Origin: Armatimonadota bacterium
GTDB taxonomy: Bacteria > Armatimonadota > Hebobacteria > GCA-020354555 > CP070648
Direction of reading: 5' to 3'
NCBI GenBank assembly: GCA_020354555.1
Contig: CP070648.1
Coordinates: forward strand, 2,544,152-2,608,151
Length of the DNA stretch: 64,000 bases
In this document: positions 952-57,504 of the stretch, piece after piece
Numbering within the stretch: the stretch's first letter is position 1
Layout of the letters: every line of letters starts with the position of its first letter
Notes under the pieces: generated by a model
Databases searched by the model: none
Told to the model about the DNA's origin: nothing
The model's input: only the letters and a program-made list of their open reading frames with translations
Program-made: the position numbers and the translations under genes

Positions 952-996
952 GACAGGTGGCGCGGAGCAGCTCTCCCGCGCGCAGGAGGAAGTGCT

Positions 997-7149: not shown

Positions 7150-8274
7150 ATGACCTCGCGGGAACGCCTGCTGGCGCTGCTTCAGGGCAGGCCGGTTGAT
7201 CGCTGCGGCGTGTGCACCTACACCCACGACGGGCTCAACAACTCCCGCCTGAGAGAGGAGCCGAGTTGTGCGGAGATGATGCCGGTCATCGACGCGGAAA
7301 CAGAGATCTTCCTCGGCTGGGGGCCCAAGGTTGAGCCCAACGTATTCCTGTCCACATCACCCGACATCTCCATCTCCGAGGAGGAGCACCCCGAAGACGA
7401 CCACGTCGTGATTCGCTCCACGCTCCACACGCCGAAGGATGATCTGCATTCCCTGTGCGTGAGGCACGACGGCGTCGCGACGACGTGGAAAGTGGAGCAC
7501 TATCTCAAGACCGACGAAGACGTCGAGCGGTTCCTCTCCATGCCGTACGTTCGCCCGCGCGTTGAAGACAATGATTTCGCTGGGGCCCTGGCGCGCGTTG
7601 GCGAGCGGGGGCTGGTCGAAATCGGGATGGCCGACCCGATCTGCTACGTTGCGGACCTCTTCGAATTCGGCGACTGGACGATAAGAGCGTGGCAGGACCG
7701 CAAGACGATCCGCCGGTTGCTCGACGCGATAGCGCCTCGCGTGTACGATTGGCTCGACGGCGTGCTCGCGCTGGGTATCAGCGGCACGGTGTTCAGGCTG
7801 TGTGGCCCGGAATACGCGAGCGAGCCGTACGTGAGCCCTGCGCTGTTCCGCGAGTTCGTGACCGAGTATGATCTGCCCATCGCGCGCAAGATGCATGACG
7901 CCGGATGCTACCTGCGCCTGCACAGCCATGGGCGGCTCGGCAACGTGCTCGACCACATCATGGAACTGGAGCCGGATATTCTCGAGCCCGTCGAAGGACC
8001 GCCGAGCGGAGACATCACCATCGGCGAAGTGGCGCGGCGCGTGGGGCGCGACTGCGTGCTCATGGGCAACCTCGAGCCGCGCGAGTTGGAGTTCGCCGAT
8101 GCCGAGGTGGTTGACGCGCTCGTGCGTGAGATCATGGCATCGGTGGCCGGTCATTCGCCGTTGATCGTCGCTCCGACCGATATGCCGATCGCCTTCCCGC
8201 TGTCGCCTGTCTACGCGCGCAACATCCGACGCTACGTCGAGGTGGTGTTGGAAGAGGCGGGCGAGTATAATTGA
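7150..8274 (+). CDS. uroporphyrinogen-decarboxylase (URO-D) family protein, function unknown (paralogue 1)
   Basis: ATG 7150 is preceded by GGGAGGG. The C-terminal half 'LRLHSHGRLGNVLDHIMELEPDILEPVEG...VLMGNLEP' is typical of URO-D/MtaA-like TIM barrels. Confidence 0.7.
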   Translation: MTSRERLLALLQGRPVDRCGVCTYTHDGLNNSRLREEPSCAEMMPVIDAETEIFLGWGPKVEPNVFLSTSPDISISEEEHPEDDHVVIRSTLHTPKDDLHSLCVRHDGVATTWKVEHYLKTDEDVERFLSMPYVRPRVEDNDFAGALARVGERGLVEIGMADPICYVADLFEFGDWTIRAWQDRKTIRRLLDAIAPRVYDWLDGVLALGISGTVFRLCGPEYASEPYVSPALFREFVTEYDLPIARKMHDAGCYLRLHSHGRLGNVLDHIMELEPDILEPVEGPPSGDITIGEVARRVGRDCVLMGNLEPRELEFADAEVVDALVREIMASVAGHSPLIVAPTDMPIAFPLSPVYARNIRRYVEVVLEEAGEYN

Positions 8275-9616: not shown

Positions 9617-9741
9617 TGCGACAAGGTCGTTGCGTTACCGGAGAGTCCCAGGCCGGGCCGATCATGCCCGAGGGCTGCATTGCGGAAGAGCTTCGGGCCC
9701 TGCGATGACAGCCGAAACTCCATAATTGCGTCACACGACCT

Positions 9742-12654
9742 ATGCTCTATCCTGCGGCGGCTTTCGCTATCGCTTTCGTCGTGACCCTCGGCGGCACAGC
9801 GCTGCTGCGCCGCCGGCTCGGGGCATTCGTCTCGCGCGAGGCCAAGCCGGGCAAGGAGAGGATTCACCGGCTGTTCCCCAAGCCGCGCAAGCCCCTCGGG
9901 GGCGGCGTCGGCATGATGGCGGCCTTCGCCGCCGGTACCCTGGTCGCGGCGTGGCTGCGCGGCGATCCGCCCCGGATGATTGAAGCCGCCCTCGTCATCG
10001 TCGCAGGTGCTTGGCTGTTCGCCGCCATCGGCATCGGCGATGACCTGCGCAAGGCGCGCGGGGCGGGCATGTCGGAGCGGAGCAAGTTGCTGCTGCAGAT
10101 TGCGGCGGGGCTCGCGCTCGGCCTCTACCTCAAGCTGCGCGTGATGGGCGCGGGCGACGTGTACGTCCCGCTCGTCCGCTACACGCTTCACACCGGATGG
10201 CTCTATGTCCCGTTCGCGGCGCTGGTGATTATCGCGACGGCCAACGGCGTCAACCTGGCGGACGGCGTGGACGGGCTCGCGGCGGGCAGTGTCGCGATCG
10301 CGGGGTTCGCTTACTTCGTCATCGGGTCGTTCTGGAACCCGCAGGTGATGGTCGCGGCCCCGGCGTTGACGGGGGCGTGCCTCGGCTTCCTGGTGCTGAA
10401 TTACCCGCCGGCGCGCGTGCTCATGGGCGACACGGGTGCGTTGGGCCTCGGCGCCGCGCTGGCCATGATGGCGCTGCTCTCGATGGGCGAGTGGGCGCTG
10501 GTGCTCATCGGCGGCGTGTTCGTAATTGACGCGATGTCTGTCATCCTCCAAACCGGAGCGATACGCCTGGTGCGCGGGCCGGTGCAACTCCTGCGCCACC
10601 GCACGACGGAGGCCTGGCGGCCGTTCCTGTGCACGCCGCTGCACCATCATTTTCAGTGGTTGGGCTGGCGCGAGCCGCGCATCCTTGCGTTGTTCTGGAG
10701 CGTCGGCTTGCTGCTCGTCCTGCTCGGGTTTGCCGACTACGCGCTGCGCGTGGATTGGCCATGGCTCGTCGGGCTGGGGGTGATGGCCGCCTTCCTGGCC
10801 GGGGCGGCGTGGCAGAAGGTGGCGCGCGCCAACTTCTTCCTCGGGCTCATGCCGTCGCAGGAAGGGGAGGACCTGCTCGCGCTGTTCCGCGGCATACCCG
10901 TGCGCCTGCTCGGCCGTAGGCTGTATCAGCCCTGCAAGGTGACGCCGATACCCGAGAGCGCGGTCGAGTCGGTGGCGGAGGAGAATCTGTGGCGGCCGAT
11001 GGGGGAGGTCGAGGCGGAGATCATCCTCGGCAAAGTCTACTGCGATCATAAGCTTTACGACCAGGCGATTGGGGAGTGGGAGCAGGTGCCGGTGCGCAAC
11101 TTGATGCTGCGCGAGGACGTCGTGCTGCGCCTGGCGCGGATCTACTACGCGCGCAATCGGATTCTCGACGCCGTGCGGCTGTGGGAGAGGCTGCCGTCGG
11201 CGCGACAGGACAACGGCGAAGGTCTGGGCTCGGTCGTGGCACGCGCCAAGGCCCGCCTCGCCGACCTCGCAGGCAAGTCCTATCGCCAGGCGATGCGCTC
11301 CGGTGTCCGCGCCGAACTGGCACAGGCGCGCCGACTCAACCAGGACCTGCTCGAACTCCTGGTTTACGAGCGGGAGAAGCTGGAGGCTCCTGGGGCAGGC
11401 GCCCAGGTGCCGCAGGCGACGCACGAGCGCGGCCTCTTCCGACGGATGGAGCGGGCGGTGCTGCGGCGCATCGGCGACCTCGACCAGCGACTGGAAACCC
11501 CGGCGCCCGCCGTGCGCGCCGTGCCGGCGGCCGCACTCGACGAGCAGACCGAGGCTGTCGCGCGTCGTCTCGGGATCAGCACACAGGAACTCGTCGAGGC
11601 CTTCGCCGCCTGTCCCTACGGAGTCCCTCGCCTGCGATGGTGCGAGGCGGTGGCCGGAGCGTCGCGCAACGAAATCTACCGCATGGAGGCGGAGTGGGCC
11701 GGCCCGGAGACCATGATCGCGAAGCGCTATGACCCGGCGCGCATTCAGTTCTTTTCGGCGTGCTACCGGCGGGAGGCCGAGGTCGTGCGCTTACTCCATC
11801 AGTACGCGGTCAGCGTGCCGGAGTTCTACGGAGGAGTGGATAACGAGAAGCGTGCGGTGGGGTTCTTCGAGGATCTCGGTGCGGTGACCCTCGCCGGGCG
11901 CCTACGCGAGAACAAGCGCGAGGCGCGAGCACGACTGCTGGAGGAGGCGGTCAGAGCGGTCGCGCGGATGCACGCCGTGGCGCGGCGCAACCTGCCGCGG
12001 CTTCGCGAGGAGATCCTGCGCATCGACAAGGAAGCATTGAGCGAGCGGTATTACATGGACGCGTTCCGCATCGCGCTCGAACGGCTCGTGGAGACCGCTG
12101 GCGCGGAGCTGTCCGCCGATGAGCGGCGGATTGTGGAGGGCCAACTGAGCGAAGTGGCGGCGACCCTCGCGACTCAGCCCAAGACATTCATCCACTTCGA
12201 GCTCACGCCGCATCATCTGGCGGTTCGCGGCGATGACTTCGTGGCGTTCGACTTCGAGCAGGCGACGCTCGGCCCGCCCGAGTTCGACCTCGTGACGCTG
12301 CTGCGCTCCCCGGACAGCGACTTGCAGGATTCGGAAATCGAGCGCCTGCTCGAACGCTATCGGCTGTGCATGACGGAGTCGGATCCCGATCCCCTGCCTC
12401 CTCGCGCGCCCGCAGCCGCAGACTACGCGGCATTGTTCAAGGGACTGTTCTACGCCGGGGCCGCGGCGAATTTCTGGCGCAAATTCGACGACGAGGCGTG
12501 GCTGACTCGCTTGCGCTGGTACCTCAAGGACTGGCAGGCCGTGGCGGCGCGCTACCCCGGGCTGGCGGAAGTGGGGCACATGCTGCGCTCCCGCTTCGGG
12601 CGCATGCCGCGCGCTTCGGGGCAGGGCAACGGCACAGGTGGCGGAGCGACCTAG
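9742..12654 (+). CDS. mraY: phospho-MurNAc-pentapeptide translocase (MraY) fused to TPR repeats and a C-terminal APH-type kinase-like domain
   Basis: MraY motifs are present: 'IGDDLRK', 'NGVNLADGVDGLAAG', 'VLMGDTGALGLG' and 'PLHHHFQWLGW'. The C-terminus shows 'GASRNEIYRM..MIAKRY', 'FFEDLG', 'FIHFELTPHHL' and 'AFDFEQATLG..FDLVTLL'. The whole is a single 970-codon frame. Confidence 0.8.
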   Translation: MLYPAAAFAIAFVVTLGGTALLRRRLGAFVSREAKPGKERIHRLFPKPRKPLGGGVGMMAAFAAGTLVAAWLRGDPPRMIEAALVIVAGAWLFAAIGIGDDLRKARGAGMSERSKLLLQIAAGLALGLYLKLRVMGAGDVYVPLVRYTLHTGWLYVPFAALVIIATANGVNLADGVDGLAAGSVAIAGFAYFVIGSFWNPQVMVAAPALTGACLGFLVLNYPPARVLMGDTGALGLGAALAMMALLSMGEWALVLIGGVFVIDAMSVILQTGAIRLVRGPVQLLRHRTTEAWRPFLCTPLHHHFQWLGWREPRILALFWSVGLLLVLLGFADYALRVDWPWLVGLGVMAAFLAGAAWQKVARANFFLGLMPSQEGEDLLALFRGIPVRLLGRRLYQPCKVTPIPESAVESVAEENLWRPMGEVEAEIILGKVYCDHKLYDQAIGEWEQVPVRNLMLREDVVLRLARIYYARNRILDAVRLWERLPSARQDNGEGLGSVVARAKARLADLAGKSYRQAMRSGVRAELAQARRLNQDLLELLVYEREKLEAPGAGAQVPQATHERGLFRRMERAVLRRIGDLDQRLETPAPAVRAVPAAALDEQTEAVARRLGISTQELVEAFAACPYGVPRLRWCEAVAGASRNEIYRMEAEWAGPETMIAKRYDPARIQFFSACYRREAEVVRLLHQYAVSVPEFYGGVDNEKRAVGFFEDLGAVTLAGRLRENKREARARLLEEAVRAVARMHAVARRNLPRLREEILRIDKEALSERYYMDAFRIALERLVETAGAELSADERRIVEGQLSEVAATLATQPKTFIHFELTPHHLAVRGDDFVAFDFEQATLGPPEFDLVTLLRSPDSDLQDSEIERLLERYRLCMTESDPDPLPPRAPAAADYAALFKGLFYAGAAANFWRKFDDEAWLTRLRWYLKDWQAVAARYPGLAEVGHMLRSRFGRMPRASGQGNGTGGGAT

Positions 12655-20594: not shown

Positions 20595-21983
20595 CTACGA
20601 CTCCGCGTCCGCAAGCCGCGCCGGCATCACCTCCCGCGACTTGAACCGCCCGCCCTGCGTCACCAGCCCCCAGTGCAGGCTGTCCTCATTCATGTAGTGG
20701 TCGCGCCATACCCACCAGCACCAGCCGAGCATGTCATTCGCGCGGGCGAAGCGCTCCACTTCCCGCACATATTCGGCACGGCGCCGGTCGCGCTCCGCCT
20801 CCGCCGCCTCGGGATAGACGTGAAAGACATCCATGCCGACCTCCCACACCAGGAACGGCTTCGGGCGCGTCGCGCGGCTGCGAATCGCATCTATCTCGCG
20901 AAGCAGATGGCTCTGGGCGTCATCGAGTTCCTCTTGCGACCACGGATACCAGCCCTGGCAGTAGAAGTCCACGCTGCCGACACCCCAGGTCATCTCGCGC
21001 CAGTACCCGAAGCGCCACGGATCAACGCGCTGCACGACGAGAGTGTCGGGAGCCCCTCGCCGCAAGGCGGCGGTGATGGCCTCTATGACCTTGATGGACA
21101 GCGGATTGTGCCAGCGATTGAAATCCTGCCACTTCTCTTCTTCGTAAGGCGTGACCGGCAGGTCACGGTACGGCGTCCCCTCGAGCCTGCAGATCGAGTC
21201 GCGCGCCCATTCGTCAACGGGAAACAGCACGTCATCCCACGACGGGTTGCTCTCGCCCCAGCGTTTGTTCCAGTAACCGAGGTCCGGGTTATCCCGGCGC
21301 AGGAAATCGCGCCACGAGCGCAGGTTGAGCGGATCGTTGAAGTTCCAGTGATTCAGGTTGAGATGCTGCCAGTCCAGCGGGTCGAAGATGACGTTGTCGT
21401 AGCTGCGGCACACGCGCGCGACGCGTTCGTGAAAGCGCAGGAACGCCTGCCAGGAGTAGGTGTCGTAGTCCGCAATGGCCGGCCAGTCAGTCACCAACCA
21501 ACCGTAGTACGCATCGTGTTTCCGGCCGCCCAGATCGGTAAACGCAGCGTTGAAGAGGCCGTTCACCCCGGCGGGAACGCGCGACATCCCGAACCACAGG
21601 TCAACATAGAGCCCGTGGCGCTGCGCCGAGTCGAGCAGATGAACCAGCTTGCGCTGCGCGTTCCGGCTCCACTCGTAGCGCCCGCCCTCGACGTCCACGC
21701 TCGGCATGAAGCTGCCCCAGTTGACCTGCACTGCCGCCAGGTTAAACCCCTGGCGCTGCATCGCCGCGAAATCGCGCTCCACCATCGCCTCGTCGAGGTC
21801 CTCCCAGAAGCAGTGGTGGAAGGCGTGCGGCTGCCAGTACATCGCGCCGCGGATGAACACGGGCGCCCCGCCGTCTACGAGTCGGCCGTCTTGCAGCTCT
21901 AGGCCCGCCGGAGCGCCGGTCGCGGCCAGCGTCAGGGCCACAGCGGTGACTGCGACGGTCAGAGATGCGATACGTGCCGTCAT
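20595..21983 (-). CDS. secreted glycoside hydrolase, TIM-barrel clan GH-A-like (GH5/GH42-like), family uncertain
   Basis: It has a signal peptide 'MTARIASLTVAVTAVALTLAATGA'. Cellulase-like segments include 'FIRGAMYW', 'DFAAMQRQGFNLAAVQVNW' and 'FLVWEVGMD' (a putative nucleophile Glu). Confidence 0.5.
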   Translation of the reverse strand: MTARIASLTVAVTAVALTLAATGAPAGLELQDGRLVDGGAPVFIRGAMYWQPHAFHHCFWEDLDEAMVERDFAAMQRQGFNLAAVQVNWGSFMPSVDVEGGRYEWSRNAQRKLVHLLDSAQRHGLYVDLWFGMSRVPAGVNGLFNAAFTDLGGRKHDAYYGWLVTDWPAIADYDTYSWQAFLRFHERVARVCRSYDNVIFDPLDWQHLNLNHWNFNDPLNLRSWRDFLRRDNPDLGYWNKRWGESNPSWDDVLFPVDEWARDSICRLEGTPYRDLPVTPYEEEKWQDFNRWHNPLSIKVIEAITAALRRGAPDTLVVQRVDPWRFGYWREMTWGVGSVDFYCQGWYPWSQEELDDAQSHLLREIDAIRSRATRPKPFLVWEVGMDVFHVYPEAAEAERDRRRAEYVREVERFARANDMLGWCWWVWRDHYMNEDSLHWGLVTQGGRFKSREVMPARLADAES

Positions 21984-22251
21984 TCGTAACCCTCCGCGTT
22001 CACGTCTGGTTGTCAGTCGTACTGCTGACGCAACGGCGAACGCATGCCGTCGTGAGGTGTGTGGGTGATCGAGAGCCGCCGGTGTCGTGCGCGCCGGTCA
22101 CGTAGAGCAATCGCCCTCGATAGAGACACCACCGAGCCCTCGCCATGTCGTCCGTACGGAGATACGCAACGGACGAAGCGAAGCGTCCCCGCCCCGTCAC
22201 GACAGTTATTCAGGCAGGGCGTAACGAGACCCCGCGAGCGCGGCCCGCCCG

Positions 22252-23285: not shown

Positions 23286-24266
23286 CTACCTCCGCCGGCG
23301 AAACTGGTCGAGGAACACGGCAGCGATGATGATGACCCCGATTGCGACCTGCTGCCAGAATACCGGAACCCGCAGGAGGTCGCACCCGTTGCGCAACACG
23401 GCCATTATCAGCGCGCCAATGAGCGTCCCGGCCACCGTTCCCTGGCCGCCCATCAGGCTCGCGCCGCCGATTACGGCTGCGGCAATCGCGTCCAGCTCGT
23501 AGCCGACCCCGGCCGTCGGTTGCCCGATACTGAGGCGGCTGGTCAGCGCGAGGCCCGCCAGGGCCGACAGCAACCCCGCGATGGCAAAGATAATGGTCAC
23601 GACTCGCTTGACGGGAATTCCCGAGAGCCGGGCCGCCTCGGGATTACCGCCGATGGCGTAGATACTGCGCCCCAGTGATGTTCGGGTGAGCACCACGTGC
23701 GCCGCGACCGCGACTGCACCGGCGAGCAGCGCGGGCAGCGGAATGCCGACCCGTCGCGCCATCGAGAGGTCGGCGAACCTCTGCGGCACCCCGAACACGT
23801 TCACCCCGCCCGTGATAATCAGTGCGGCGCCCCTCGCAATGCCCATCATCCCCAGGGTGACGATGAACGAGGGCATTCGCCCAAACGCGGTCAGCGCCCC
23901 GCTCAGTGTGCCGACGCCAACGCCAAGCGCAACGCCGAGCAGCACCGACGGCGCGATCCCCACCCCGCTGCGCATCAACAGCGCCGCCGCACAGCCGCAC
24001 AGCGCCAGCACCGATCCCACCGACAGGTCAATGTTGCCGCTGATGATGACCATCGTCTCGGCGACCGCGAGGATTGCCACCGCCGACGCCTGTACCGCGA
24101 CAGTTGCCAGATTATTGGGCGTGAGAAAGTGAGGCGAGGCGAAGGATAGGATGACCCCCATCACGATCAACGCCGCCAGCGGCCGCAGCCACTCGGCAAC
24201 CCGCTGCCACGCCAAAACGGGTGCGACGTCTCCTATCACATGCGAGTTGTCTCTCTGTTGCCCCAT
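23286..24266 (-). CDS. sugar ABC transporter permease (RbsC/BPD_transp_2 type)
   Basis: It is multi-TM and Gly/Ala-rich, with 'IDLSVGSVLAL' and 'GGNPEAARLSGIPV', which are characteristic of CUT2 permeases. The start is either ATG 24266 or TTG 24272. Confidence 0.85.
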   Translation of the reverse strand: MGQQRDNSHVIGDVAPVLAWQRVAEWLRPLAALIVMGVILSFASPHFLTPNNLATVAVQASAVAILAVAETMVIISGNIDLSVGSVLALCGCAAALLMRSGVGIAPSVLLGVALGVGVGTLSGALTAFGRMPSFIVTLGMMGIARGAALIITGGVNVFGVPQRFADLSMARRVGIPLPALLAGAVAVAAHVVLTRTSLGRSIYAIGGNPEAARLSGIPVKRVVTIIFAIAGLLSALAGLALTSRLSIGQPTAGVGYELDAIAAAVIGGASLMGGQGTVAGTLIGALIMAVLRNGCDLLRVPVFWQQVAIGVIIIAAVFLDQFRRRR

Positions 24267-24379
24267 ACGCAATCCAATCCGAGTCGCTCAGTTGGATTCG
24301 CGACAAGATAGCACGCTCCTGCCCGCAGGCGTACGGGCAGGCAAAGGATGACGCACTCGCGGCGTGGAATCAGTGCGCC

Positions 24380-25483
24380 ATGACCGACCAGCACGTTGAC
24401 GATCAACAGCCCGCTGCCCTCGATCGCGCCGTCGAAGAGCGCATCGCCCGCTCGATCAACTTCGAGGAGGGCGACCGCGTTCCAATCTGGGACTACATTG
24501 ACAACCCTTCCGCCATCGACCACTTCGCGCCGGGCGAGGAGGATCTGCTCGCCGCCAATGTCAAGGTCTATCACGGCCTGGGGATTGACCTGTGCCGAGG
24601 CTTCGGCGGCAGCTACGCGGCAGAGCGCAACGGCGAGCAGCACACGGACGACGAAGGCGCGGTGCGCAGCATCATCTCGGGGCAGACCTGCTGGTCGGTG
24701 CGCAAGGCGATACGCAGCATCGAGGAACTGCGGGCGTACAAGCCGCCCGCGCCGCGCGACATCGAGCAGATGCGCGCGGAATGGGTGCCGCACGTGCGTG
24801 CCGTGCAGGCGGCGTTCGCGCCCCTGACGATGTACGTCCCCGGCCACGGCTGCGGCTTCCACGGCACGTACGACATGATGGGGCTCCAGCTCTTCTCCTA
24901 CGCCATCTACGACTGCCCGGCCGAGGTCGAGCGGCTGATCGAGGCCGGCAACGTCCCCGGCGTGCACATCGCAAGGATCGCCGCGGAGGCAAAGCTGTGC
25001 CCGCTCTTCTTCATCGGCGACGACATCGCCTACAAGCAGCGGCTGATGTTCTCGCCGGAATTCCTGCGCCGCACGTTCATCCGCGCGCTGCGCAACATGT
25101 GCGAGCCGCTGCGCAACGCGGGCATCAAGGTGATTTTCCACAGCGACGGCAATGTCACCGACATCCTCGATGACATGATCGAGGCGGGCATCAGCGGGCT
25201 CAACCCCATCGAGCCGCTGGCGGGGATGGATATCGGCTGGCTCAAGCGGCGCTACGGCAAGGAGTTGATCCTCGTTGGCAACGTGGATTGTTCCCAGGTG
25301 CTGCCGCTCGGCACGGTCGCGGAGGTCGTTGCGGCGGCAAAGGAATGCCTGCGCCAGGCCGCGCCGGGAGGCGGCCACTTCATCGGCTCTTCCAGCGAAA
25401 TCACGCCCAGCACGCCGCTCGAGAATGTCCTTGCATTCTATGAGGCCTGCCGCGAGCACGGCAGGTATCCGATTCGCCTGTGA
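24380..25483 (+). CDS. uroporphyrinogen-decarboxylase (URO-D) family protein, function unknown (paralogue 2)
   Basis: 'IFHSDGNVTDILDDMIEAGISGLNPIEPLAGMDIGWLKRRYGKELILVGNVDC...GGGHFIGSSSEI' is a typical URO-D-like C-terminal half. The start is re-set to ATG 24380, although the RBS there is weak. Confidence 0.7.
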   Translation: MTDQHVDDQQPAALDRAVEERIARSINFEEGDRVPIWDYIDNPSAIDHFAPGEEDLLAANVKVYHGLGIDLCRGFGGSYAAERNGEQHTDDEGAVRSIISGQTCWSVRKAIRSIEELRAYKPPAPRDIEQMRAEWVPHVRAVQAAFAPLTMYVPGHGCGFHGTYDMMGLQLFSYAIYDCPAEVERLIEAGNVPGVHIARIAAEAKLCPLFFIGDDIAYKQRLMFSPEFLRRTFIRALRNMCEPLRNAGIKVIFHSDGNVTDILDDMIEAGISGLNPIEPLAGMDIGWLKRRYGKELILVGNVDCSQVLPLGTVAEVVAAAKECLRQAAPGGGHFIGSSSEITPSTPLENVLAFYEACREHGRYPIRL

Positions 25484-25591
25484 GCGCATCCGCGTCTTGC
25501 GTGAGCGCAGGACATCGGGGATTGCATCGCGAATCTAGCTCGTGGTGGAACGCCGCTTCAGACAGGTCTTCGACGAAAGGATACGAGGAGG

Positions 25592-26326
25592 ATGGACAGA
25601 CCGATTCGCGTCACCGTATGGAATGAGTACCGCCACGAGAAGAGGAATGAGCAGATCGCCAAGCTCTACCCCAAGGGGATGCACGGCGCGATTGCCGAGC
25701 ATCTGTCCAAGCAGCCGGGCATCGAGGTGCGCACTGCGACGCTGGACGAGCCCGAGCACGGGCTGACGGAGCAAGTCTTGGCCGAGACCGATGTCCTCAC
25801 CTGGTGGGGGCACACGGCGCACGGGGAAGTCAAGGACGACATCGTCGCCCGCGTGCGCGAGCGAGTGTTGGACGGCATGGGGCTCATCGTGCTGCACTCC
25901 GGCCACTTCTCCAAGATCTTCGGGGCGCTGCTGGGCACGACGTGCAATCTGCGCTGGCGGGAGATCGGGGAGAAGGAGCGCCTGTGGGTGATTGACCGCA
26001 GCCATCCCATCGCCGAAGGCGTTGGCGAGTACTTTGAGTTGCCGCATACCGAGATGTACGGCGAGCCCTTCGACATCCCGGCGCCGGACGCGCTGGTCTT
26101 CGTGAGCTGGTTCGCGGGCGGCGAGGTCTTCCGCAGTGGATGCTGCTTCAACCGTGGCCGCGGGAAGATCTTCTACTTCCGGCCGGGACACGAGACGTTC
26201 CCCATCTACCACGACGCGAATGTGCTGAAGGTCATCACCAACGCCGTTCGCTGGACAGCGAGCGGGCGCGCCGCGGCGCCGACCTTCGGCAACATGCAGC
26301 CCCTGGAGGATGTGAAGCCCGAGTAG
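25592..26326 (+). CDS. ThuA-domain (trehalose-utilisation-like) protein
   Basis: '[12 protein letters not shown]...[11 protein letters not shown]...[14 protein letters not shown]...HPIAEGV...[13 protein letters not shown]...GEVFRSG' matches the ThuA family. The RBS is AGGAGGATG. Confidence 0.85.
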
Positions 26327-46979: not shown

Positions 46980-48095
46980 ATGCGCCGCAACATCGCTGTG
47001 ATTATCGCCCGGCACTCGCTGGTCGTCGGGATTGCCATCGGTTGCATCATCGGTGCCGCCTTGACCGGCCTGGTCATGGGACGCAGCCGCGCGGTGCTCG
47101 CCAAGCCGGCGTACGCGCAGGCTACGGCTCCGGAGTCCGAGCCGGCGATCATCGCCGCAATCCAAAAGGTCGGGCCCGCCGTGGTCAACATTGACACCAT
47201 AATCCAGTCCAGAGCCGCAGAGCTGCCCGCGCCCCTGCGCGAGTTCTTCGGGGAGCCGTTCCCGCGGCAGGGACAGGCTTCGGGTGTCATCATTGATGCG
47301 CAGGGCCACGTCCTGACGAACAACCACGTCGTGCAGAACGCGCGCGCGGTGAGAGTCACTCTCGCCGACGGGCGCACGTTCGATGCCTCCGTCGTCGGGA
47401 CCGATCCCCTGACCGATATGGCGGTGGTGAAGATCGAAGGCGCTGACCTGCCCGTGGCCGAGTTGGGGAGTTCCGTGGATGTGCCGATCGGCGGTTGGGT
47501 GATCGCGATCGGCAACCCGTTCGGCTATGAGAACACCGTCACCGTCGGCGTCTTGAGCGCCCGCAACCGCCAACTGCGCGCTCCCACGGGAGCGAACCTG
47601 CACGAGCTGCTCCAGACCGACGCTTCGATCAACCCCGGCAACAGCGGCGGCGCATTGGTCGACATTCGGGGCAAAGTCATCGGCATCCCGACGGCGATCA
47701 TCCCCTATGCCCAGGGCATCGGGTTTGCGATCTCCTCCGAGGCCGCCCGCGGTGTGGCCGATGAACTCATCGCGAAAGGCCGCGTCAGCCACCCGTGGCT
47801 GGGGATTTCCAACGTGCCGGTGAGCGAGCATATCGCACGCCAGTTGAAGCTCCCGGATACCAAGGGCGTCGCAGTCATCGGAGTAGTGCCCGACAGCCCG
47901 GCGGCACGAGCGGGGATCCAACCGCGCGATGTGATCGTTCGCATGGGGGAGCGCGAGATTGCGAAGCAGGACGACGTCGGCGAGGTGCTTAGGGAAAGCG
48001 CGGTGGGACAAGTGCTCGCCCTTACGGTGCGCCGCGCGGGGCAAGAGGTGGAACTCGCGGTGACCGTTGGGGAACGACCGGTGCGGCAGCCGTAG
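46980..48095 (+). CDS. htrA: HtrA/DegP-family serine protease with a PDZ domain
   Basis: It has an N-terminal TM anchor and the catalytic triad contexts 'TNNHVV', 'DMAVVKI' and 'GNSGGALVD'. The C-terminal PDZ includes 'GVVPDSPAARAGIQPRDVIV'. Confidence 0.9.
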   Translation: MRRNIAVIIARHSLVVGIAIGCIIGAALTGLVMGRSRAVLAKPAYAQATAPESEPAIIAAIQKVGPAVVNIDTIIQSRAAELPAPLREFFGEPFPRQGQASGVIIDAQGHVLTNNHVVQNARAVRVTLADGRTFDASVVGTDPLTDMAVVKIEGADLPVAELGSSVDVPIGGWVIAIGNPFGYENTVTVGVLSARNRQLRAPTGANLHELLQTDASINPGNSGGALVDIRGKVIGIPTAIIPYAQGIGFAISSEAARGVADELIAKGRVSHPWLGISNVPVSEHIARQLKLPDTKGVAVIGVVPDSPAARAGIQPRDVIVRMGEREIAKQDDVGEVLRESAVGQVLALTVRRAGQEVELAVTVGERPVRQP

Positions 48096-48147
48096 ATCGC
48101 GGGTCCGGTCGCAGCGCGAGCGCCTCATGGGCCGGACGCGATGACGG

Positions 48148-49317
48148 CTAGGCCCCGATGGCGGCCGCCCGCGCCCGCTCGTAGACGTCCTTGAGCGGCA
48201 CGCCCTTCTCACGCGCGAGGCGCCTGCAATCCTCATATTCCGGCGCCACCGTGACGATTTCGCCCTCAAGCCTAGCGATCTTCACGCGCACCTGGCCGAA
48301 CGGCGTCTCCACCGTGACCCAATCCCGGTCGAGGCAATGGCGGCTGACCTCGCGCGCCCGCACGCCGAGGGTCGTCGTCTCGCGGAACAGGATGCGCAGC
48401 AGTTCGGCCTGCTTGTCCGGGGCCGCGAGCGTCGTGAGCAGCGAAGCCGGGCGCGATTTCTTCATGATGATCGGCGTGATGAAGACGTCCAGCGCGCCGG
48501 CCTCGAAGAGCCGCTCGACAACGCGTTCGTAGAACTCCGGGTTCATGTCGTCGAGGTTGGTTTCGAGGACGACCAGTGTTTCCGCGGCAGACGCGCCTGG
48601 TGCCGCCGCGTCGCCGAGGAACATGCGCAGGCAGTTGGGGTGGGGGAGATCCTTGCTGCCGGCGCCGTAGCCCACGCGGCGCACGGTCATCGCAGGCATC
48701 GGCCCGAAGCTGTCGCAGAGGCCGGTAACGAGAGCGGCGCCCGTGGGAGTCACCAGTTCCGTCTCGGCGCCGCCGCCGTAGGTCGGAAACCCCTCGAGCA
48801 GCTTCGCCGTCGCCGGAGCCGGAATCGGCAGCCGGCCGTGATCCGTCTCGACCCATCCGGAGCCGAGAGGCAACGGCGAGCAGGTGGCGCGTTCGATGCC
48901 GAGCATGCCGAAGCCGACGACCGTGCCGACAATGTCCACGATGGCGTCAACTGCGCCGACCTCGTGGAAGTGCACGTCTTCCACCGCGACGCCGTGGACC
49001 GACGCCTCCGCCTCCGCTAGGCGTCGGAAAATGTCGCCTGCGCGCCGCGCGACCTGCAAATCGAGGGAGCCGCGCTCGATCACGCCAAGGACTTCGGCAA
49101 GGCGCCGCTCGGGCTGGGATTCGGAGACCTCGACCTCCACCAGCGTGCACTCGATGGGCCCCCGTTGAACGCGCTCGGCCCTGAGCCGCCAGCCCTTCAG
49201 ATCGAGGCCCGACAAGGCGGACTGGAGCCCGTCGCGGTCGAGTCCGCAGTCAACCAGCGCGCCGAGCAGCATATTGCCGCTCGCGCCGGAGAAGCAATCG
49301 AGATGCGCTGTTTTCAT
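48148..49317 (-). CDS. larC: nickel-pincer cofactor biosynthesis protein LarC (nickel insertase, DUF111)
   Basis: 'MKTAHLDCFSGASGNMLLGALVDCGL' and 'FHEVGAVDAIVDIVG' are present, with full-length DUF111 architecture. Confidence 0.9.
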   Translation of the reverse strand: MKTAHLDCFSGASGNMLLGALVDCGLDRDGLQSALSGLDLKGWRLRAERVQRGPIECTLVEVEVSESQPERRLAEVLGVIERGSLDLQVARRAGDIFRRLAEAEASVHGVAVEDVHFHEVGAVDAIVDIVGTVVGFGMLGIERATCSPLPLGSGWVETDHGRLPIPAPATAKLLEGFPTYGGGAETELVTPTGAALVTGLCDSFGPMPAMTVRRVGYGAGSKDLPHPNCLRMFLGDAAAPGASAAETLVVLETNLDDMNPEFYERVVERLFEAGALDVFITPIIMKKSRPASLLTTLAAPDKQAELLRILFRETTTLGVRAREVSRHCLDRDWVTVETPFGQVRVKIARLEGEIVTVAPEYEDCRRLAREKGVPLKDVYERARAAAIGA

Positions 49318-49378
49318 GCCGCCGTTGTATTCTACACGCCTGACCGCGAAGACCTGCTTTCAAGAACTGTCACAGGGC

Positions 49379-50434
49379 CTACTCGTGCCTTGCCCGCGGC
49401 GGCACGCGCGCCGGCAGCAGCCACCGCGGGCGCTTGATGAACTCGCCGCCCTTGGGGGTCTGCTCAACCAGGCCGGCCTTTTCGAGGTGGTTGAAGCAGC
49501 TGCGCATGCAGCCCCGCGAGCCCTCGACCCCGTAGCTGCCTGCCTCACCCCACTTCTGGAGCATCGCGTGCCCCTCGACGACGTAACCGGAAGGGAACTC
49601 CTCCGTCGCCCGCCAGCGCCCGGTTGAGAGCGGCCAGCACAGCTTGTAGGCGGCCTCCTCCGACAGCTCCTGCTCGGTCACATCGAAGCTCCACCCCGGG
49701 AGATCGCGGTGCAGGAACGGCGAAACGCGGGGGTCGCCTCCGTGGTAGATGAGTGTGCACTTGCCCATGTCCACATCGGCCCACTCGTAGGTTCTGCCCT
49801 CGATTCGGATTGAGACTGACTTCCCCTCTGTGATGTGAGGGATCGCGCCCGGGCACCCCTTGACGCACTCCATGCAGCGCCGGCAGATGGCGCCCGGTTC
49901 GATCAGCGGGTCGGGCTGCAGGGGCATGTCAGTGATGATGGCGTGAAGGCGCTGGCGTGGCCCGAACCTCGGCGTCAGGAAGACCTTCGACCAGCCGATC
50001 TCGCCCAGGCCGGCGGCGACCGCTGCGATGCGTATTGCGAGTTGCACATCAGGCGCGGCGGCGCCCGGTCGCAGGGCTTCGGTCGGCGGCTGCGCTTCCG
50101 GCACGCCGGGGTAGTAAGGCACCGCCTCCCACCCCTGATCCTCCAGCAGACACGCGACTTCGTACAGCGGGATGGGGATGAAGACAGTGTTGAGCAGGCC
50201 GTGGTAATCGAAATACGTGTATGACGGCCAGTAGGTGCCTTCCTCGATCCCTCGCCAGCCGCCGCGCAAGATGCGTTTGCCGACGACGATGACGGACCGC
50301 GCCTCCGGGAAGATGGCGGCTGGATGCATCCGCGCGGGAGCACCGTCAAAACGCTCGATGTTGGCGACCCCCAGCAGGTCGAGGCCCTGGGAGACGGCGA
50401 ACTCGCGGAGCGATTCTGTGGTGAGAGCGGCCAT
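49379..50434 (-). CDS. QueG/RdhA-superfamily iron-sulfur protein (paralogue A)
   Basis: The N-terminal half resembles epoxyqueuosine reductase or reductive dehalogenase ('GLDLLGVANIERF...IFPEARSVIVVGK...AAGLGEIGWSKVFLTPRFGPRQRL..ITDMPLQPD'). It has a canonical 'CRRCMECVKGCP' 4Fe-4S motif and a distal 'CMRSC'. Confidence 0.7.
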   Translation of the reverse strand: MAALTTESLREFAVSQGLDLLGVANIERFDGAPARMHPAAIFPEARSVIVVGKRILRGGWRGIEEGTYWPSYTYFDYHGLLNTVFIPIPLYEVACLLEDQGWEAVPYYPGVPEAQPPTEALRPGAAAPDVQLAIRIAAVAAGLGEIGWSKVFLTPRFGPRQRLHAIITDMPLQPDPLIEPGAICRRCMECVKGCPGAIPHITEGKSVSIRIEGRTYEWADVDMGKCTLIYHGGDPRVSPFLHRDLPGWSFDVTEQELSEEAAYKLCWPLSTGRWRATEEFPSGYVVEGHAMLQKWGEAGSYGVEGSRGCMRSCFNHLEKAGLVEQTPKGGEFIKRPRWLLPARVPPRARHE

Positions 50435-50439
50435 GGCGC

Positions 50440-51318
50440 TTACAGCAGTCTCCGGTCCTCGACGATTCCCCAGGGCGGGCGCTTGCGGAACGGATGTCGG
50501 AACGTGTTGGCGACGCGGTTGTTGGCCTCGAGGTAGGCAATGCAGCTGCGCGTGCAGAGGGCGGCGAGGCGTTCTGGGCGACCGGAGGGATGATATGGGT
50601 TGGGCGCGGCACCGTTCTTGCACTGCGCACACTTCGAGTGATCGAGTCCGGCCACGAGCATATCTTTGCCGCAAATCGAGATCGTGCGCTCGGCGCCGGG
50701 GTCAATCGCTCCGAGCGGGCAGAAAGCAGCGTGATCCCGCTGGCGGTCGCATACCGGCGCCTCAAGCAGCGGATCGGGCGCCAGCGCTGCGTCGGTAAGG
50801 ATGAGCTGTATCCGCTGGCGCGGCCCGAACTCAGGGGTCAGCAGTAAGCCGCAGTAGCCGATCTCGCCCAGGCCGGCGCGCACGGCGGCATCGTCAAAAT
50901 CGGGCATGACGTTGGGCGCCGGTTGCCCCGGCCGCACCGGCACGCCGAGCGGCGGGACCTCTGCGGGCAGGTTCGGCAGCGGCACCGCTTCCCAACCGCT
51001 GTCCTCCAGCAACTGGGCGATCCTCATCGTGGCCGTGGCGAGCACGCGGTTGTTGAGCCAATCCCGGCCGTAGAGATGATAGAGCTGGAACTGGGTACCC
51101 TCCTCGACGCCGCGCAGCGCCCCGCGCGTGATACGCTTGCCGACAACGAGGACCGATTGGATTTCCGGGAAGATCGCAGCCGGGTGGTGGTCGGCCGCGA
51201 CGTCGCTGAAGCGAGCTATGGAGGCGATCCCCAGCAGATCGGCGCCGAGGTCGCGAGCCTGGGCCTTCAAGTGACGGGTCAGATCGTGTGAATCGCCGCC
51301 CGGTTCCGGTGCAGGCAT
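50440..51318 (-). CDS. QueG/RdhA-superfamily protein (paralogue B, first Fe-S motif degenerate)
   Basis: It is collinear with paralogue A ('FPEIQSVLVVGKRI', 'AGLGEIGYCGLLLTPEFGPRQRI..LTDAALAPD') but reads 'VCDRQRDHAAFCP' where A has CxxCxxCxxxCP. ATG 51318 follows AGGAG, and its stop is 5 nt before the start of A. Confidence 0.65.
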   Translation of the reverse strand: MPAPEPGGDSHDLTRHLKAQARDLGADLLGIASIARFSDVAADHHPAAIFPEIQSVLVVGKRITRGALRGVEEGTQFQLYHLYGRDWLNNRVLATATMRIAQLLEDSGWEAVPLPNLPAEVPPLGVPVRPGQPAPNVMPDFDDAAVRAGLGEIGYCGLLLTPEFGPRQRIQLILTDAALAPDPLLEAPVCDRQRDHAAFCPLGAIDPGAERTISICGKDMLVAGLDHSKCAQCKNGAAPNPYHPSGRPERLAALCTRSCIAYLEANNRVANTFRHPFRKRPPWGIVEDRRLL

Positions 51319-51420
51319 GGACGGTCTCCTGTGTCCGCGGTGGCGGGCGAACGCGGCGGCAAGGCCGTTGGTTCGCTGTCCGGCCGCGCTCGGTCGAGCA
51401 CGGCTTCGGCCTCGCCTGTG

Positions 51421-51461
51421 GAGGCACAGCATGCGTCCCCGCATCCGAAGGGCTGTGCCTC
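51421..51461 (-). other. 10-bp GC-rich hairpin starting at the larB stop codon
   Basis: GAGGCACAGC (51421-51430) pairs with GCTGTGCCTC (51452-51461) around a 21-nt loop. There is no U-tract, and the hairpin lies in a 142-nt spacer. Confidence 0.4.
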
Positions 51462-52261
51462 TACGGTTCGCGCGTGTCCGGTGACGCGTCGGGTGCCGCG
51501 GCGCAGGTCGCGATCAGGGCGGCATAGTAGCCGGCGCCGTAGCCATTATCAATATTAACCACGGCGACGCCGCCGGCGCAGCTATTGAGCATGGTCAGCA
51601 GCGCGCCGATCCCGCCGAAGCTCGTGCCGTAGCCGACGCTGGTGGGCACCGCGACGACAGGCGCGCGCGCCAACCCACCGACGACGCTGGCCAGCGCGCC
51701 CTCCATCCCCGCCACGACAACGATGGCGCTTGCCTCGGCGAGCTTGTCCGCGTGTCCGAGCAGCCGGTGAATGCCCGCGACACCGACGTCGTACAGACGC
51801 TCGACGCGGCAGCCCATCGTCTCGGCGGTGACCGCGGCCTCCTCGGCGACAGGTTGATCGGCGGTACCCGCGGAGATGACGAGCACCGAGCCGCCGCCGG
51901 TGGGCGCATCATCACCCGAGCGCAGCACGATCATCCGCGCAAGCTCTCGGTATTCCGCTTCGGGCAGTTCCGGCCGCACCGCCTCGTACACCTCGCGCGT
52001 CGCGCGGGTTGCGAGCGCGGTCTGCCCGTGCTCGACAAGCCGCTTCATGAGCGCCGCGATCTGTTGGGGGCTCTTGCCCGGGGAGTAGATCGCCTCGGGG
52101 AAGCCTTTGCGCAGGATGCGATGCGTGTCGAGCTTGGCGAAGTCGAGGTCCTCGAACGGCAAGTGCCGCAACCGTTCGAGCGCCTGCTCGACCGGCATTT
52201 CGCCCGACTTGATCTGCTCCAGTAGCTCGCGGAGTCGTTCCTTCATGGTCAGCCTATGCAT
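51461..52261 (-). CDS. larB: nickel-pincer cofactor biosynthesis protein LarB (PurE-like NaAD carboxylase/hydrolase)
   Basis: 'VLVISAGTADQPVAEEA', 'YDVGVAGIHRL', 'VVAGMEGALASVVGGL' and 'VVAVPTSVGYG' are present. Confidence 0.9.
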   Translation of the reverse strand: MHRLTMKERLRELLEQIKSGEMPVEQALERLRHLPFEDLDFAKLDTHRILRKGFPEAIYSPGKSPQQIAALMKRLVEHGQTALATRATREVYEAVRPELPEAEYRELARMIVLRSGDDAPTGGGSVLVISAGTADQPVAEEAAVTAETMGCRVERLYDVGVAGIHRLLGHADKLAEASAIVVVAGMEGALASVVGGLARAPVVAVPTSVGYGTSFGGIGALLTMLNSCAGGVAVVNIDNGYGAGYYAALIATCAAAPDASPDTREP

Positions 52262-52324
52262 CCTGGTTACGCCGCGGCAGGCCGCACCTCCTGCGCGGGC
52301 CAGCAGCGCCTTGGGCAGAACTGA

Positions 52325-52383
52325 TAGGGGCGCACGGCCGTGCGCCCCTACATGAAAGAGATATCCGTCCGGGACTCGGACGG
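52325..52383 (-). terminator. two tandem hairpins downstream of ppdK (candidate terminators)
   Basis: CCGTCC/GGACGG (52365-52383) is followed on the minus strand by ATATCTCTTTCA. Next comes an 11-bp stem TAGGGGCGCAC-GGCC-GTGCGCCCCTA (52325-52350), followed by TCAGTTCT. Confidence 0.45.
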
Positions 52384-52398
52384 CGGGGAACAGGGTCT

Positions 52399-55080
<2,682 letters not shown>

Positions 55081-55170
55081 CAAATCCTCCTTGGATCCTG
55101 TATTATTGCCATGTTGCGCGGCGGAATGGTTCCCGAATCCCGCCGGTGCGGACGATGGGATACCGGTCAA

Positions 55171-56292
55171 TCAGGGCGAGCCGGAGCCGCGTGCGGCTTT
55201 CGCTCGCTCCCACAGCGCGTCCATCTCTGCAAGCTTCATGCCTTCGAGAGTTTTCCCCCGTTCGGCGGCGAGTTCCCGCATTTTCGCGAAGCGGTCGGCG
55301 AAGCGGTCAGCCGCGGCTCTGAGCGCCTGTTCGGCATCGACCCCGGCGAAGCGCGACACATTCACGACCGCGAATAGTATGTCGCCCAGTTCGTGCTCCA
55401 GGCGCGGCGAGCCCGGCGTCTCGGTCGCCAGCTCCCTCTTGAGTTCCTCGATTTCCTCCAGCAGCTTCGCCAGCGGACCCTCCGCCTCGGTCCACTCGAA
55501 GCCGTAATGCGCCGCCCGCCGCTGCACCTTCTGTGCGCGATCGAGCGCGGGCAGCGTGGGCGCCACGCCGGAGAGCAGCCCTTCTGACTCGTCGCTGCCG
55601 GCTTCGTCACGCTTGAGTTCATCCCATCGCCGCAGCACCGCGGCCGCATCGTCGACGACCGCGTCCCCGAACACGTGAGGATGGCGCGACACGAGCTTGT
55701 CGCGCAGCCGCCTCGCGACGTCATTGAAGTCGAACTCCCCGCGCTCGGCCGCGAGATGAGCGTGGAAGATGATCTGGAGCAGGATGTCGCCCAACTCGCT
55801 CGCGAGTTCCTGCCAGTCCGCGCGATCAATGGCGGCGATGGCCTCGTGCGCTTCCTCGAGCAGGCAGCGCCGCAGTGTGCGGTGATCCTGCTCCCGGTCC
55901 CACGGGCAGCCGTCCTCACCGCGCAATCGTGCCATGATGGCGCGCAGACCGTCCACGTCCGCGCGCTGCTCCGCCGGCAGCGCGGCAACGAACACACTCA
56001 CCGGCGGCGGCATCTCCGCCGCCGGTTCCAACTCGGCGAGGGTAACCGCCCGTGTTGCTTGGTGCGACGAGCCGGGGCGACTCACGACTGTCGCAGGATG
56101 ATCCATGGGATAGTGCGCAGTCAGCGTGTCGCGCAAGCGCGAGGCAACATTCGCATTACCTATGCCGATGAACAGGCTGTCGGCGCCGGCATCGGGCGTC
56201 ACCTCTCCTCGGCGCACATCGAACACCCGGACGCCGGTGAGTTCAGCCCCGGCCGCTCTCACAGCGGCCTCGATGGAACTAGCTTTGGGCAC
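55171..56292 (-). CDS. mazG: MazG-family nucleoside triphosphate pyrophosphohydrolase with an N-terminal extension of about 115 aa
   Basis: There are two MazG repeats ('EEAHEAIAAI...ELGDILLQIIFHA' and 'EEIEELKREL...ELGDILFAVVNVS'). The start is GTG 56292. Confidence 0.85.
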   Translation of the reverse strand: MPKASSIEAAVRAAGAELTGVRVFDVRRGEVTPDAGADSLFIGIGNANVASRLRDTLTAHYPMDHPATVVSRPGSSHQATRAVTLAELEPAAEMPPPVSVFVAALPAEQRADVDGLRAIMARLRGEDGCPWDREQDHRTLRRCLLEEAHEAIAAIDRADWQELASELGDILLQIIFHAHLAAERGEFDFNDVARRLRDKLVSRHPHVFGDAVVDDAAAVLRRWDELKRDEAGSDESEGLLSGVAPTLPALDRAQKVQRRAAHYGFEWTEAEGPLAKLLEEIEELKRELATETPGSPRLEHELGDILFAVVNVSRFAGVDAEQALRAAADRFADRFAKMRELAAERGKTLEGMKLAEMDALWERAKAARGSGSP

Positions 56293-56433: not shown

Positions 56434-57417
56434 CTACGGCCCGCTCGACTCATCGGAAGGCGGCGGGGGCTGTTGCTGAGGTGCCGGCTGCGGCGGCCCC
56501 GCTCCCGGTATCACCGGCGGCTTTTGCTCCTTGAGCTTCGAATACTGCTCAGTCAGGCTCTGGTACTTGGGCCGGAAGATCGTGATGCTGGCGTCCGCGC
56601 GCAGGTCATCAATGAACTTCTGCACCTCGGTCTGGCGCAGCGCCATTACGGACTGCATGACGCGGCTCTTGACCTCGTCGAACGAGTGCTGCTTGCCCTC
56701 GGTGCGCTCGACCACTTGGATAATCTGGTAGCTGCCCTCGGGGTAGCTGGACTCGATGGGTTCGCTCACCTCGTTGAGAGCGACGGTGAACAGCAGCTTG
56801 CTGACATTGGGGTCGCCGAAGCCCTCGGACACCGGGCCGATCTCCCCGCCGCGCTCCTTCAACACCGGGTCCTCGGACTTCTCCTTGACTGCTTGGGCGA
56901 AATCGAGCTTGCCGGACACGATATCCTGCCGCACCTTCTCTGCTTCCGCCTTGTTCGGCAGGATTATGCGCCGATACTTGGCCTGCGCCGGCTCGTCGAA
57001 GCGCGTCTTGTTCTCGTCGTAGTACTGCTTGAGTTCGTTGTCCGGGATCACCAGCTTGGTCAGGAGGAAATTCTTCTCCAGGTCGGCCCTGACGCCCGCC
57101 TCGGTCTGATCCGCCCGGCGCAGGAACTCATCCCACTTGTCCTCCCCGACGCGTTTCTTGAGGTCGTTGATGGCCTGATCCAACTCGGCATCGGCAACCT
57201 GGATGCCTTTCTCCTTCGCCATCTGCGCCATGAGGTGCTCGAGTATCAGCCGATCAAGCACCTGACGGCCCACGGTGTCCTCCAGCTTACTGTAGAACTC
57301 CTGCTCGGTGATGATGTCACCGTTGACCTTGGCCACGGCCCGCTTGGCGCAACCCGTGGGCGCGACCGCCAGAGTCACGACTAGTGCGAGTAGAACCGGC
57401 GCGACGAGTCGCTTCAT
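56434..57417 (-). CDS. PrsA/SurA-like parvulin-type peptidyl-prolyl isomerase lipoprotein
   Basis: The signal and lipobox are 'LALVVTLAVAPTGC', and the parvulin core is 'YRRIILPNKAEAEKV...GGEIGPVSEG'. The C-terminal tail is rich in Pro and Gln. Confidence 0.85.
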   Translation of the reverse strand: MKRLVAPVLLALVVTLAVAPTGCAKRAVAKVNGDIITEQEFYSKLEDTVGRQVLDRLILEHLMAQMAKEKGIQVADAELDQAINDLKKRVGEDKWDEFLRRADQTEAGVRADLEKNFLLTKLVIPDNELKQYYDENKTRFDEPAQAKYRRIILPNKAEAEKVRQDIVSGKLDFAQAVKEKSEDPVLKERGGEIGPVSEGFGDPNVSKLLFTVALNEVSEPIESSYPEGSYQIIQVVERTEGKQHSFDEVKSRVMQSVMALRQTEVQKFIDDLRADASITIFRPKYQSLTEQYSKLKEQKPPVIPGAGPPQPAPQQQPPPPSDESSGP

Positions 57418-57504
57418 ATCCTAGACTCCTTTCACCGGTACTGGTGTACGGCGTGACGATGAATGCGATGACGCCCCATTGCCGGGACGCGCACCCGCGT
57501 GGTA

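Follow-up and report, generated by a model that had tools for sequence, protein, structure and literature searches.

A stretch of 64 kb from contig CP070648.1 of an Armatimonadota bacterium (hereafter the window, in whose numbering positions are given) contains two genes of nickel-pincer nucleotide (NPN) biosynthesis, larB and larC, which enclose a tandem pair of genes for iron-sulfur (Fe-S) proteins, here given the working names ParB and ParA. LarB is a nicotinic acid adenine dinucleotide carboxylase/hydrolase acting in the first step of NPN synthesis and LarC is the CTP-dependent nickel insertase (cyclometallase) of the last step; their genes are two of the three NPN biosynthesis genes. The locus raises the question whether the enclosed pair takes part in pincer-cofactor biology or lies there by chance. 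The initial annotation had offered three readings, namely a new class of NPN-dependent enzyme, a redox partner or alternative maturation step for the cofactor, and a coincidental insertion, and had rightly cautioned that the sequence alone did not decide between them. Comparison with other loci favoured the third and spoke against the first two, as lar genes accompanied ParA in none of 164 loci at or below 81 % identity and ParAB accompanied LarC in none of the 80 closest loci. The four genes probably represent two unrelated modules, a larBC pair split by an unrelated Fe-S, probably corrinoid, reductase cassette, and their juxtaposition is most likely a lineage-specific rearrangement.

All four genes are co-directional on the minus strand. 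larB (51461-52261) is followed by a 142-nt spacer (51319-51460), ParB (50440-51318, 292 aa), a gap of 5 nt, ParA (49379-50434, 351 aa), a gap of 61 nt and larC (48148-49317), with 2.1 kb of coding sequence separating larB from larC. This order and these gaps had been described before and matched the coordinates of the open reading frames (ORFs) exactly. The start of ParB displays an AGGAG sequence 7 nt 5' of its ATG.

The linkage to lar genes was surveyed from both sides. From the side of ParA, the 80 closest of 341 genome loci, the 80 closest metagenome loci and single contig look-ups were considered, the genome loci being searched by tblastn with LarB and LarC of the window within 8 kb. Neither larB nor larC was found within this distance of ParB-ParA in any of the 80 closest genome loci, and one metagenome locus out of 80 (L252, ParA 86 % identical) displayed both. 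No lar genes were detected near ParA in the 164 loci in which this protein was at most 81 % identical to that of the window; contigs L253 and L258 (81 %), L085 (79 %), L170 (79 %) and L171 (78 %) are among these. Direct evidence of linkage came from five contigs (L081, L082, L168, L169 and L252), with ParA 86 % identical in all of them. These contigs keep local synteny with the window. L081/L082 and L168/L169 displayed the order larB-ParB-ParA-(x)-larC after a SurA-MazG-PPDK (pyruvate phosphate dikinase) block, which serves as a marker of lineage-specific synteny; the order SurA-MazG-PPDK-larB, typical of the longer contigs, was seen in L081, L168 and L169 as in the window.

From the other side, neither ParA nor ParB was encountered in any of the 80 closest LarC loci (the best LarC match among genomes being 58 % identical). 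LarB was present in 26 of these 80 loci, and in 18 of the 26 fewer than 200 nt separated the end of larB from the downstream larC. Adjacent larB and larC are thus the usual state, to which the lineage of the window is an exception. The neighbourhood survey proposed in the initial annotation recovered the association at 86 % identity only, and linkage restricted to the window and these close relatives is essentially the outcome which that annotation had held to speak against a functional connection. Linkage of ParAB to lar genes is restricted to one narrow Armatimonadota lineage.

ParB and ParA are far more widely distributed than this linkage. Word-indexed searches yielded 1989 homologues of ParA and 942 of ParB. 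The 120 ParA homologues listed, at least 70 % identical, came from Armatimonadota, Bacillota, Planctomycetota, Chloroflexota and Ratteibacteria. A ParA relative is encoded by 341 species-representative genomes, and the genome survey added Omnitrophota, Hydrogenedentota, Kiritimatiellia, Lentisphaerota and a metagenome-assembled genome (MAG) of Bathyarchaeota, among others. In most fetched loci ParA was 66-81 % identical to that of the window, although these loci span over a dozen bacterial phyla and include an archaeal MAG; this points to very strong constraint, to horizontal spread, or to both. The archaeal ParB-ParA (L059, Candidatus Bathyarchaeota archaeon B26-1, 59-1946) includes a ParA 67 % identical to that of the window.

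The two genes travel together. Almost without exception, ParB was found directly 5' of ParA in the 80 closest genome loci, and the adjacency held in nearly all of the 160 genome and metagenome loci (80 of each). An exhaustive HMMER search returned 2173 representative clusters at E<=1e-3. Among the 150 best representatives, 39 were proteins of 725-836 aa (including P0248, P0250 and P0255), and all 12 of those inspected were natural fusions of two, sometimes three, ParA/ParB-related RdhA/QueG-like domains. By the Rosetta-stone argument, such fusions indicate that both subunits act together. A fused homologue of 769 aa is encoded in L170 (4500-6809), where a separate ParB-ParA pair follows directly downstream.

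Neighbours of the pair outside the lar lineage were recurrent as well. Regulators of the IclR (17 loci) and AraC (10 loci) types, PF12831 FAD oxidoreductases (FAD_oxidored; 10 loci) and a U32-like gene (9 loci) recurred, as did Gfo/Idh/MocA dehydrogenases, a GntR-LacI regulator and URO-D-like, ThuA-like and FAD-linked oxidase genes. Sugar or oligopeptide ATP-binding cassette (ABC) transporters, with substrate-binding proteins (SBP), also recurred beside ParBA, and in L171 the gene of the transporter ATPase overlaps the start of ParB. Two URO-D-like genes and one ThuA-like gene occur in the window itself, at 7075-8274 (+), 24155-25483 (+) and 25505-26326 (+); genes of these two types (neighbour clusters c7 and c31) are those recurring beside ParB-ParA in other phyla. 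Eight loci (L001, L005, L023, L038, L043, L048, L054 and L073) displayed, in addition to the first, a pair resembling ParB/ParA at only 35-45 % identity. These loci belong to Omnitrophota, Ratteibacteria and TA06. Behind an IclR regulator, the genes of the divergent pairs alternate with a U32-like gene and PF12831 FAD oxidoreductases, together making up a larger conserved cluster.

ParA and ParB are paralogues sharing 43 % identity, and the initial annotation had placed them near QueG and RdhA. This assignment was right at the level of fold. Models predicted by AlphaFold2 were of high confidence (predicted local distance difference test score 91 and predicted template modelling score 0.90 for ParA; 94 and 0.92 for ParB). 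Foldseek comparison of both models with the PDB returned QueG, PceA, NpRdhA and then MMACHC, all with probability 1.00; the top matches were QueG (5t8y) and PceA at 4e-08 for ParA, and PceA at 8e-10 for ParB. A profile of the family matched PceA (8q4h) with an E value of 2e-17 over the segment GLGE.G...GPRxR...CxxCxxCxxxCP. Models, structural matches and profile agreed on a nitroreductase-like cobalamin-binding core followed by a ferredoxin-like Fe-S insertion, and on their predicted fold both proteins are clearly members of the RdhA/QueG/MMACHC superfamily. To our knowledge, no simple sequence motif marks base-off cobalamin binding in this superfamily. No cobalamin genes or riboswitches were found near the pair by the neighbour survey and an Rfam search.

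Assignment to a named family failed in both cases. Profiles of QueG_DUF1730, Fer4_16 and RdhA, which had been suggested as a check, were run on both proteins and none exceeded its cut-off. In the Pfam scan no family was above threshold for either protein, including QueG_DUF1730 and Fer4_16; ParA displayed a sub-threshold match to Fer4_10 (17.3 bits) and ParB none. The RdhA model TIGR02486 gave 49.3 bits for ParA and 35.7 bits for ParB (cut-off 160), and the QueG equivalog TIGR00276 gave 27.7 and 15.3 bits, respectively (cut-off 200). RdhA was rejected on its profile score, on the lack of a twin-arginine signal (no RRxFLK motif in the N-termini MAALTTESLREF... and MPAPEPGGDSHD...) and on the lack of rdhB, no gene for a small membrane protein adjoining ParB-ParA either in the window or in any locus surveyed. 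QueG was rejected on a score far below cut-off, on the lack of a DUF1730 match and on poor full-length superposition; the possibility, raised earlier, that the middle genes were bona fide queG orthologues consequently falls away. JGI very likely over-annotates the family in labelling many of its members 'epoxyqueuosine reductase'. No relevant paper on a characterised family member emerged from a literature search, and a text search of PMC11770544 was also empty. ParB-ParA is an unnamed and uncharacterised branch of the B12/Fe-S reductase superfamily, always paired or fused.

The pattern of Fe-S ligands also differs. Eight cysteine ligands for two [4Fe-4S] clusters are typical of QueG and RdhA; ParA conserves seven and an invariant histidine, and ParB six. 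In ParA these are C184, C187, C190 and C194, forming a complete first motif (CxxCxxCxxxCP), followed by C226, H231, C309 and C313. In ParB they are C190, C200, C230, C233, C255 and C259, its degenerate first motif lacking the second and third cysteines. Each pattern is conserved across homologues and the two are complementary between the subunits, from which we infer a heterodimer with differentiated clusters.

Compared with RdhA (PceA of Sulfurospirillum multivorans, the Desulfitobacterium reductive dehalogenase complex 8q4h and NpRdhA), ParAB has the same fold (query-normalised TM scores of 0.37-0.54) and, like it, a ferredoxin-like insertion for two clusters after the nitroreductase-like core. 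ParAB proteins are, however, about 100-150 residues shorter, carry no twin-arginine signal, adjoin no rdhB anchor and occur either as two diverged, obligately paired paralogues or as a double-domain fusion. The second Fe-S motif of ParA is interrupted by about 80 residues, with its invariant histidine replacing one cysteine, and the first motif of ParB lacks two cysteines. The gene context of ParAB is one of sugar or peptide uptake and regulators, in contrast to organohalide respiration. QueG (5d08 and 5t8y of Bacillus subtilis, 5d6s of Streptococcus thermophilus) resembles ParAB in superfamily, in length and in being cytoplasmic without a signal peptide, but is encoded by a single gene, in contrast to the heteromeric pair. 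Its full-length superposition with ParA was poor (root-mean-square deviation of 13-14 A), so that nothing suggests that ParA shares the C-terminal part of QueG.

The lar genes themselves displayed nothing unusual. LarB scored 288.9 bits against the NCBIfam equivalog NF033503 (cut-off 175) and matched the Pfam AIRC family (PurE/AIRC-like domain) at 2.7e-12. LarC scored 217.5 bits against TIGR00299 (LarC1; cut-off 90) and 167 bits against NF052512 (LarC2; cut-off 50), and matched Pfam Ni_insertion (PF01969) with an E value of 7e-148 over profile positions 2-375 of 375. The identities proposed initially are thus borne out by scores above the NCBIfam cut-offs, and LarB and LarC are full-length, equivalog-level, ordinary members of their families. 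The true start of larB may lie a few codons downstream, since its product is called as 256 aa in relatives. As in canonical larB-larC(-larE) clusters, both genes are full-length and co-directional; in other loci with both, larB mostly ends close to larC (within 200 nt in 18 of 26), whereas ParB-ParA is situated between them in the window.

The third biosynthesis gene, larE, and larA had been reported as missing from the locus, which held for the ORFs examined. No PP-loop SGGxDS motif of larE was found in ParA, ParB or any window ORF of at least 60 aa; 25 LarE-like protein queries gave no tblastn match in the window at E<=0.01; and none of the approximately 39 window ORFs scanned matched a PP-loop/LarE-type Pfam family. 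The stretch thus free of larE extends over 48 kb on one side of the locus and 12 kb on the other. For larA, the absence of Lar_N and AKR Pfam matches in the same approximately 39 ORFs is the sole basis, the ORFs at 715-3633, 3678-7181, 9709-12654 and 56434-57420 being outside these scans. Among the 80 LarC loci, a LarE-like PP-loop gene occurred within 7 kb of larC in 25 and was lacking in 55, and LarA formed no recurrent cluster near larC. It is not unusual for larC to lack larE and larA as neighbours, and the absence of larE requires no special explanation here because 55 of 80 other LarC loci are also without a nearby larE.

REP-like sequences were found around larB. A perfect palindrome of 26 nt, similar to repetitive extragenic palindromic (REP) elements, TAGGGGCGCACGG|CCGTGCGCCCCTA, is located at 52325-52350, between a terminator-like hairpin of PPDK and the start of larB; the preceding G provides a GTAG head. 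It resembles the GTAGGGGC..GCCCC palindromes flanking a REP-associated transposase in L252. At the stop codon of larB, a repeat search revealed a REP-like hairpin (51418-51464, minus strand; GTAGAGGCACAGC, 21 nt, GCTGTGCCTCCAC), and the predicted RNA fold of 51319-51463, covering the larB-ParB spacer, reached -72.9 kcal/mol (z = -3.9). REP-like copies were found in the window only on either side of larB, and a degenerate GTAG-palindrome pattern was not enriched across its 64 kb.

In relatives the interval between larB and larC was variable. The larB-ParB spacer of L252 measures about 800 nt and encodes a REP-associated tyrosine transposase of 195 aa (245-832; NF047646 65 bits, E 6e-18) with HUH motif NHIHGIV and tyrosine motif WQRNYHEHVIRNE, its gene being flanked by GTAG-headed palindromes. 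In L081 an N-terminal remnant of such a transposase (6596-6970) lies between larB and ParB. The corresponding interval of the window is one in which the transposase was lost and the REP-like palindromes were kept. Between ParA and larC, L081-L084, which are among the relatives at 86 % identity, carry an extra gene for a DNA glycosylase of 325 aa resembling Ogg/HhH-GPD proteins (L081 8907-9884; TIGR00588 72 bits, far below cut-off, and a weak Pfam HhH-GPD match). Neither the window nor any of 87 other ParA loci compared contains a homologue of this Ogg-like gene and, displaying no similarity to ParA or ParB either, it was rejected as a third paralogue or conserved partner. Searches for expression signals were largely negative. 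No cobalamin or NiCo riboswitch reached the Rfam gathering threshold, spacers included, a single chance-level match being recorded in 47900-52500; scans for sigma-70 promoters and intrinsic terminators returned one promoter-like site inside larB and the terminator-like hairpin after PPDK, not more than expected by chance. REP palindromes, transposase and variable interval fit a mobile-element-shaped junction rather than a tightly coupled operon.

Several observations weigh against the separation into two unrelated modules. Four co-directional genes with short gaps persist across at least three locus sequence variants, so that the genes may be co-transcribed and to some extent retained by selection. 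The composition of ParA and ParB is host-like (GC content at third codon positions 0.80-0.85) and thus bears no signature of recent transfer. With PPDK as bait, no relative with an empty site, i.e. with PPDK, larB and larC directly adjacent, was found; the closest PPDK genomes (Armatimonadota, 71-72 %), whose matches also place the lineage of the window in this phylum, keep SurA-MazG-PPDK but carry neither lar nor ParAB genes beyond it. Whether an insertion or another rearrangement took place is therefore a matter of inference. Many metagenome loci are moreover short, only 41 of the 80 offering 2 kb or more on the upstream side of ParA and 1.5 kb or more on its downstream side.

The first two of these observations could also be accommodated by regulatory coupling alone, ParBA having been taken up by the transcription unit of larBC and being co-expressed with it without biochemical interaction. 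A single strand, gaps of 5 nt and 61 nt, no terminator-like site from ParB to larC and the host-like codon composition of both genes agree with such a capture. The strong REP-like hairpin at the larB stop, the structured 142-nt spacer after it and the transposase gene that separates larB from ParB in relatives do not, and this explanation seems rather unlikely.

ParAB as a new class of NPN-dependent enzyme, at least in this lineage, with larB and larC supplying the cofactor, is considerably harder to uphold. The position of the pair, on the same strand between larB and larC with short gaps and kept in five related contigs, would suit it, as would the lack of a LarA homologue among the window ORFs scanned. 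Pincer cofactors are also used by proteins of folds other than LarA, i.e. the AKR-type NphT and the NPAD-dependent ornithine cyclodeaminase, and hundreds of prokaryotes possess lar genes without larA (PMC13524815). Discovery of NPN enzymes through lar neighbourhoods has, however, relied on recurrence, NphT showing 427 co-occurrences with lar genes (PMC13524815), whereas ParAB lacks recurrent association with larB, larC or larE across lineages, the surveys of 164 other ParAB loci and 80 LarC loci being devoid of it. ParAB shares with NphT and ornithine cyclodeaminase a place adjoining pincer-cofactor biosynthesis genes with no LarA found nearby, but those families recur beside lar genes and ParAB does not outside one clade. 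Their folds are of the NAD(P) type, serving hydride transfer and bearing a histidine or lysine tether, and known pincer enzymes are built on NAD-like hydride-transfer scaffolds; ParAB, in contrast, has an Fe-S/B12-type fold, and its conserved features are those of an Fe-S/corrinoid reductase. The identity of 66-81 % maintained by ParA in most fetched loci across phyla without nearby lar genes indicates that its function is conserved and independent of NPN supplied locally, and in relatives the interval is also occupied by genes for a transposase and a DNA glycosylase. Taken together, an NPN-dependent ParAB is highly improbable.

ParAB might also have been recruited to pincer-cofactor biology in this lineage, either as an NPN-using reductase or as an Fe-S-dependent maturation step independent of LarE. 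If true, this would explain why ParAB has stayed between the two lar genes although neither larE nor larA was found in the vicinity; its likelihood is slighter still. Least credible is a role of ParAB as accessory or alternative maturation factor, i.e. as Fe-S-dependent replacement of LarE or redox partner of LarC, for although larE was not found in the 64-kb window and an Fe-S-dependent LarE reported in Thermotoga (PMC9283937) is a precedent for Fe-S chemistry in sulfur insertion, ParA and ParB have neither a PP-loop nor similarity to LarE, larE is also not near larC in 55 of 80 LarC loci while ParAB is present in none, and ParAB occurs in hundreds of loci with no lar gene nearby.

Under the preferred reading of two unrelated modules, the first would consist of larB and larC, with larB elsewhere normally directly upstream of larC, and the second of ParB-ParA, a self-contained and widespread two-gene cassette with a probable heterodimer as product. 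A low-potential donor would deliver electrons that pass through [4Fe-4S] clusters, ParA presumably contributing its complete first motif and a second site of three cysteines and one histidine, and ParB a second cluster only. From there they may reach a corrinoid, or another cofactor, in the nitroreductase-like core, and ParAB would then reduce a small organic substrate, probably a compound derived from imported carbohydrate or peptide. A substrate of this class is proposed because the cassette is elsewhere found beside IclR, AraC or GntR regulators, ABC transporters and sugar-type oxidoreductases. ParAB is best read as a heterodimeric reductase in the cytoplasm of anaerobic heterotrophs, with Fe-S clusters and probably a corrinoid, and in one Armatimonadota lineage its cassette would have come to lie between larB and larC.

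Upstream of larB, the block mentioned above comprises PPDK (52399-55170, minus strand, assigned by Pfam), MazG (55171-56292) and a SurA-like gene (56434-57417). Downstream of larC, Pfam identified an HtrA protease gene in opposite orientation and an HMGL-like gene. Elsewhere the window includes three very long ORFs, at 715-3633 (+, 972 aa), 3678-7181 (-, 1167 aa) and 9709-12654 (+, 981 aa), and an ORF of 500 aa (20595-22097, minus strand) with host-like codon bias and without Pfam match.

Mining of lar neighbourhoods is currently a productive route to new nickel-pincer enzymes, and the present case shows that recurrence across lineages needs to be checked before a candidate is nominated: the adjacency of lar genes and ParAB most likely arose by accident in one clade, at a junction prone to rearrangement. 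The by-product of interest is the ParB-ParA family, which belongs to a superfamily with so far few characterised functions (RdhA, QueG and MMACHC). As its genes adjoin substrate-responsive regulators and ABC transporters in anaerobes that degrade polysaccharides, the family may catalyse a reductive step of carbon catabolism that has so far escaped notice.

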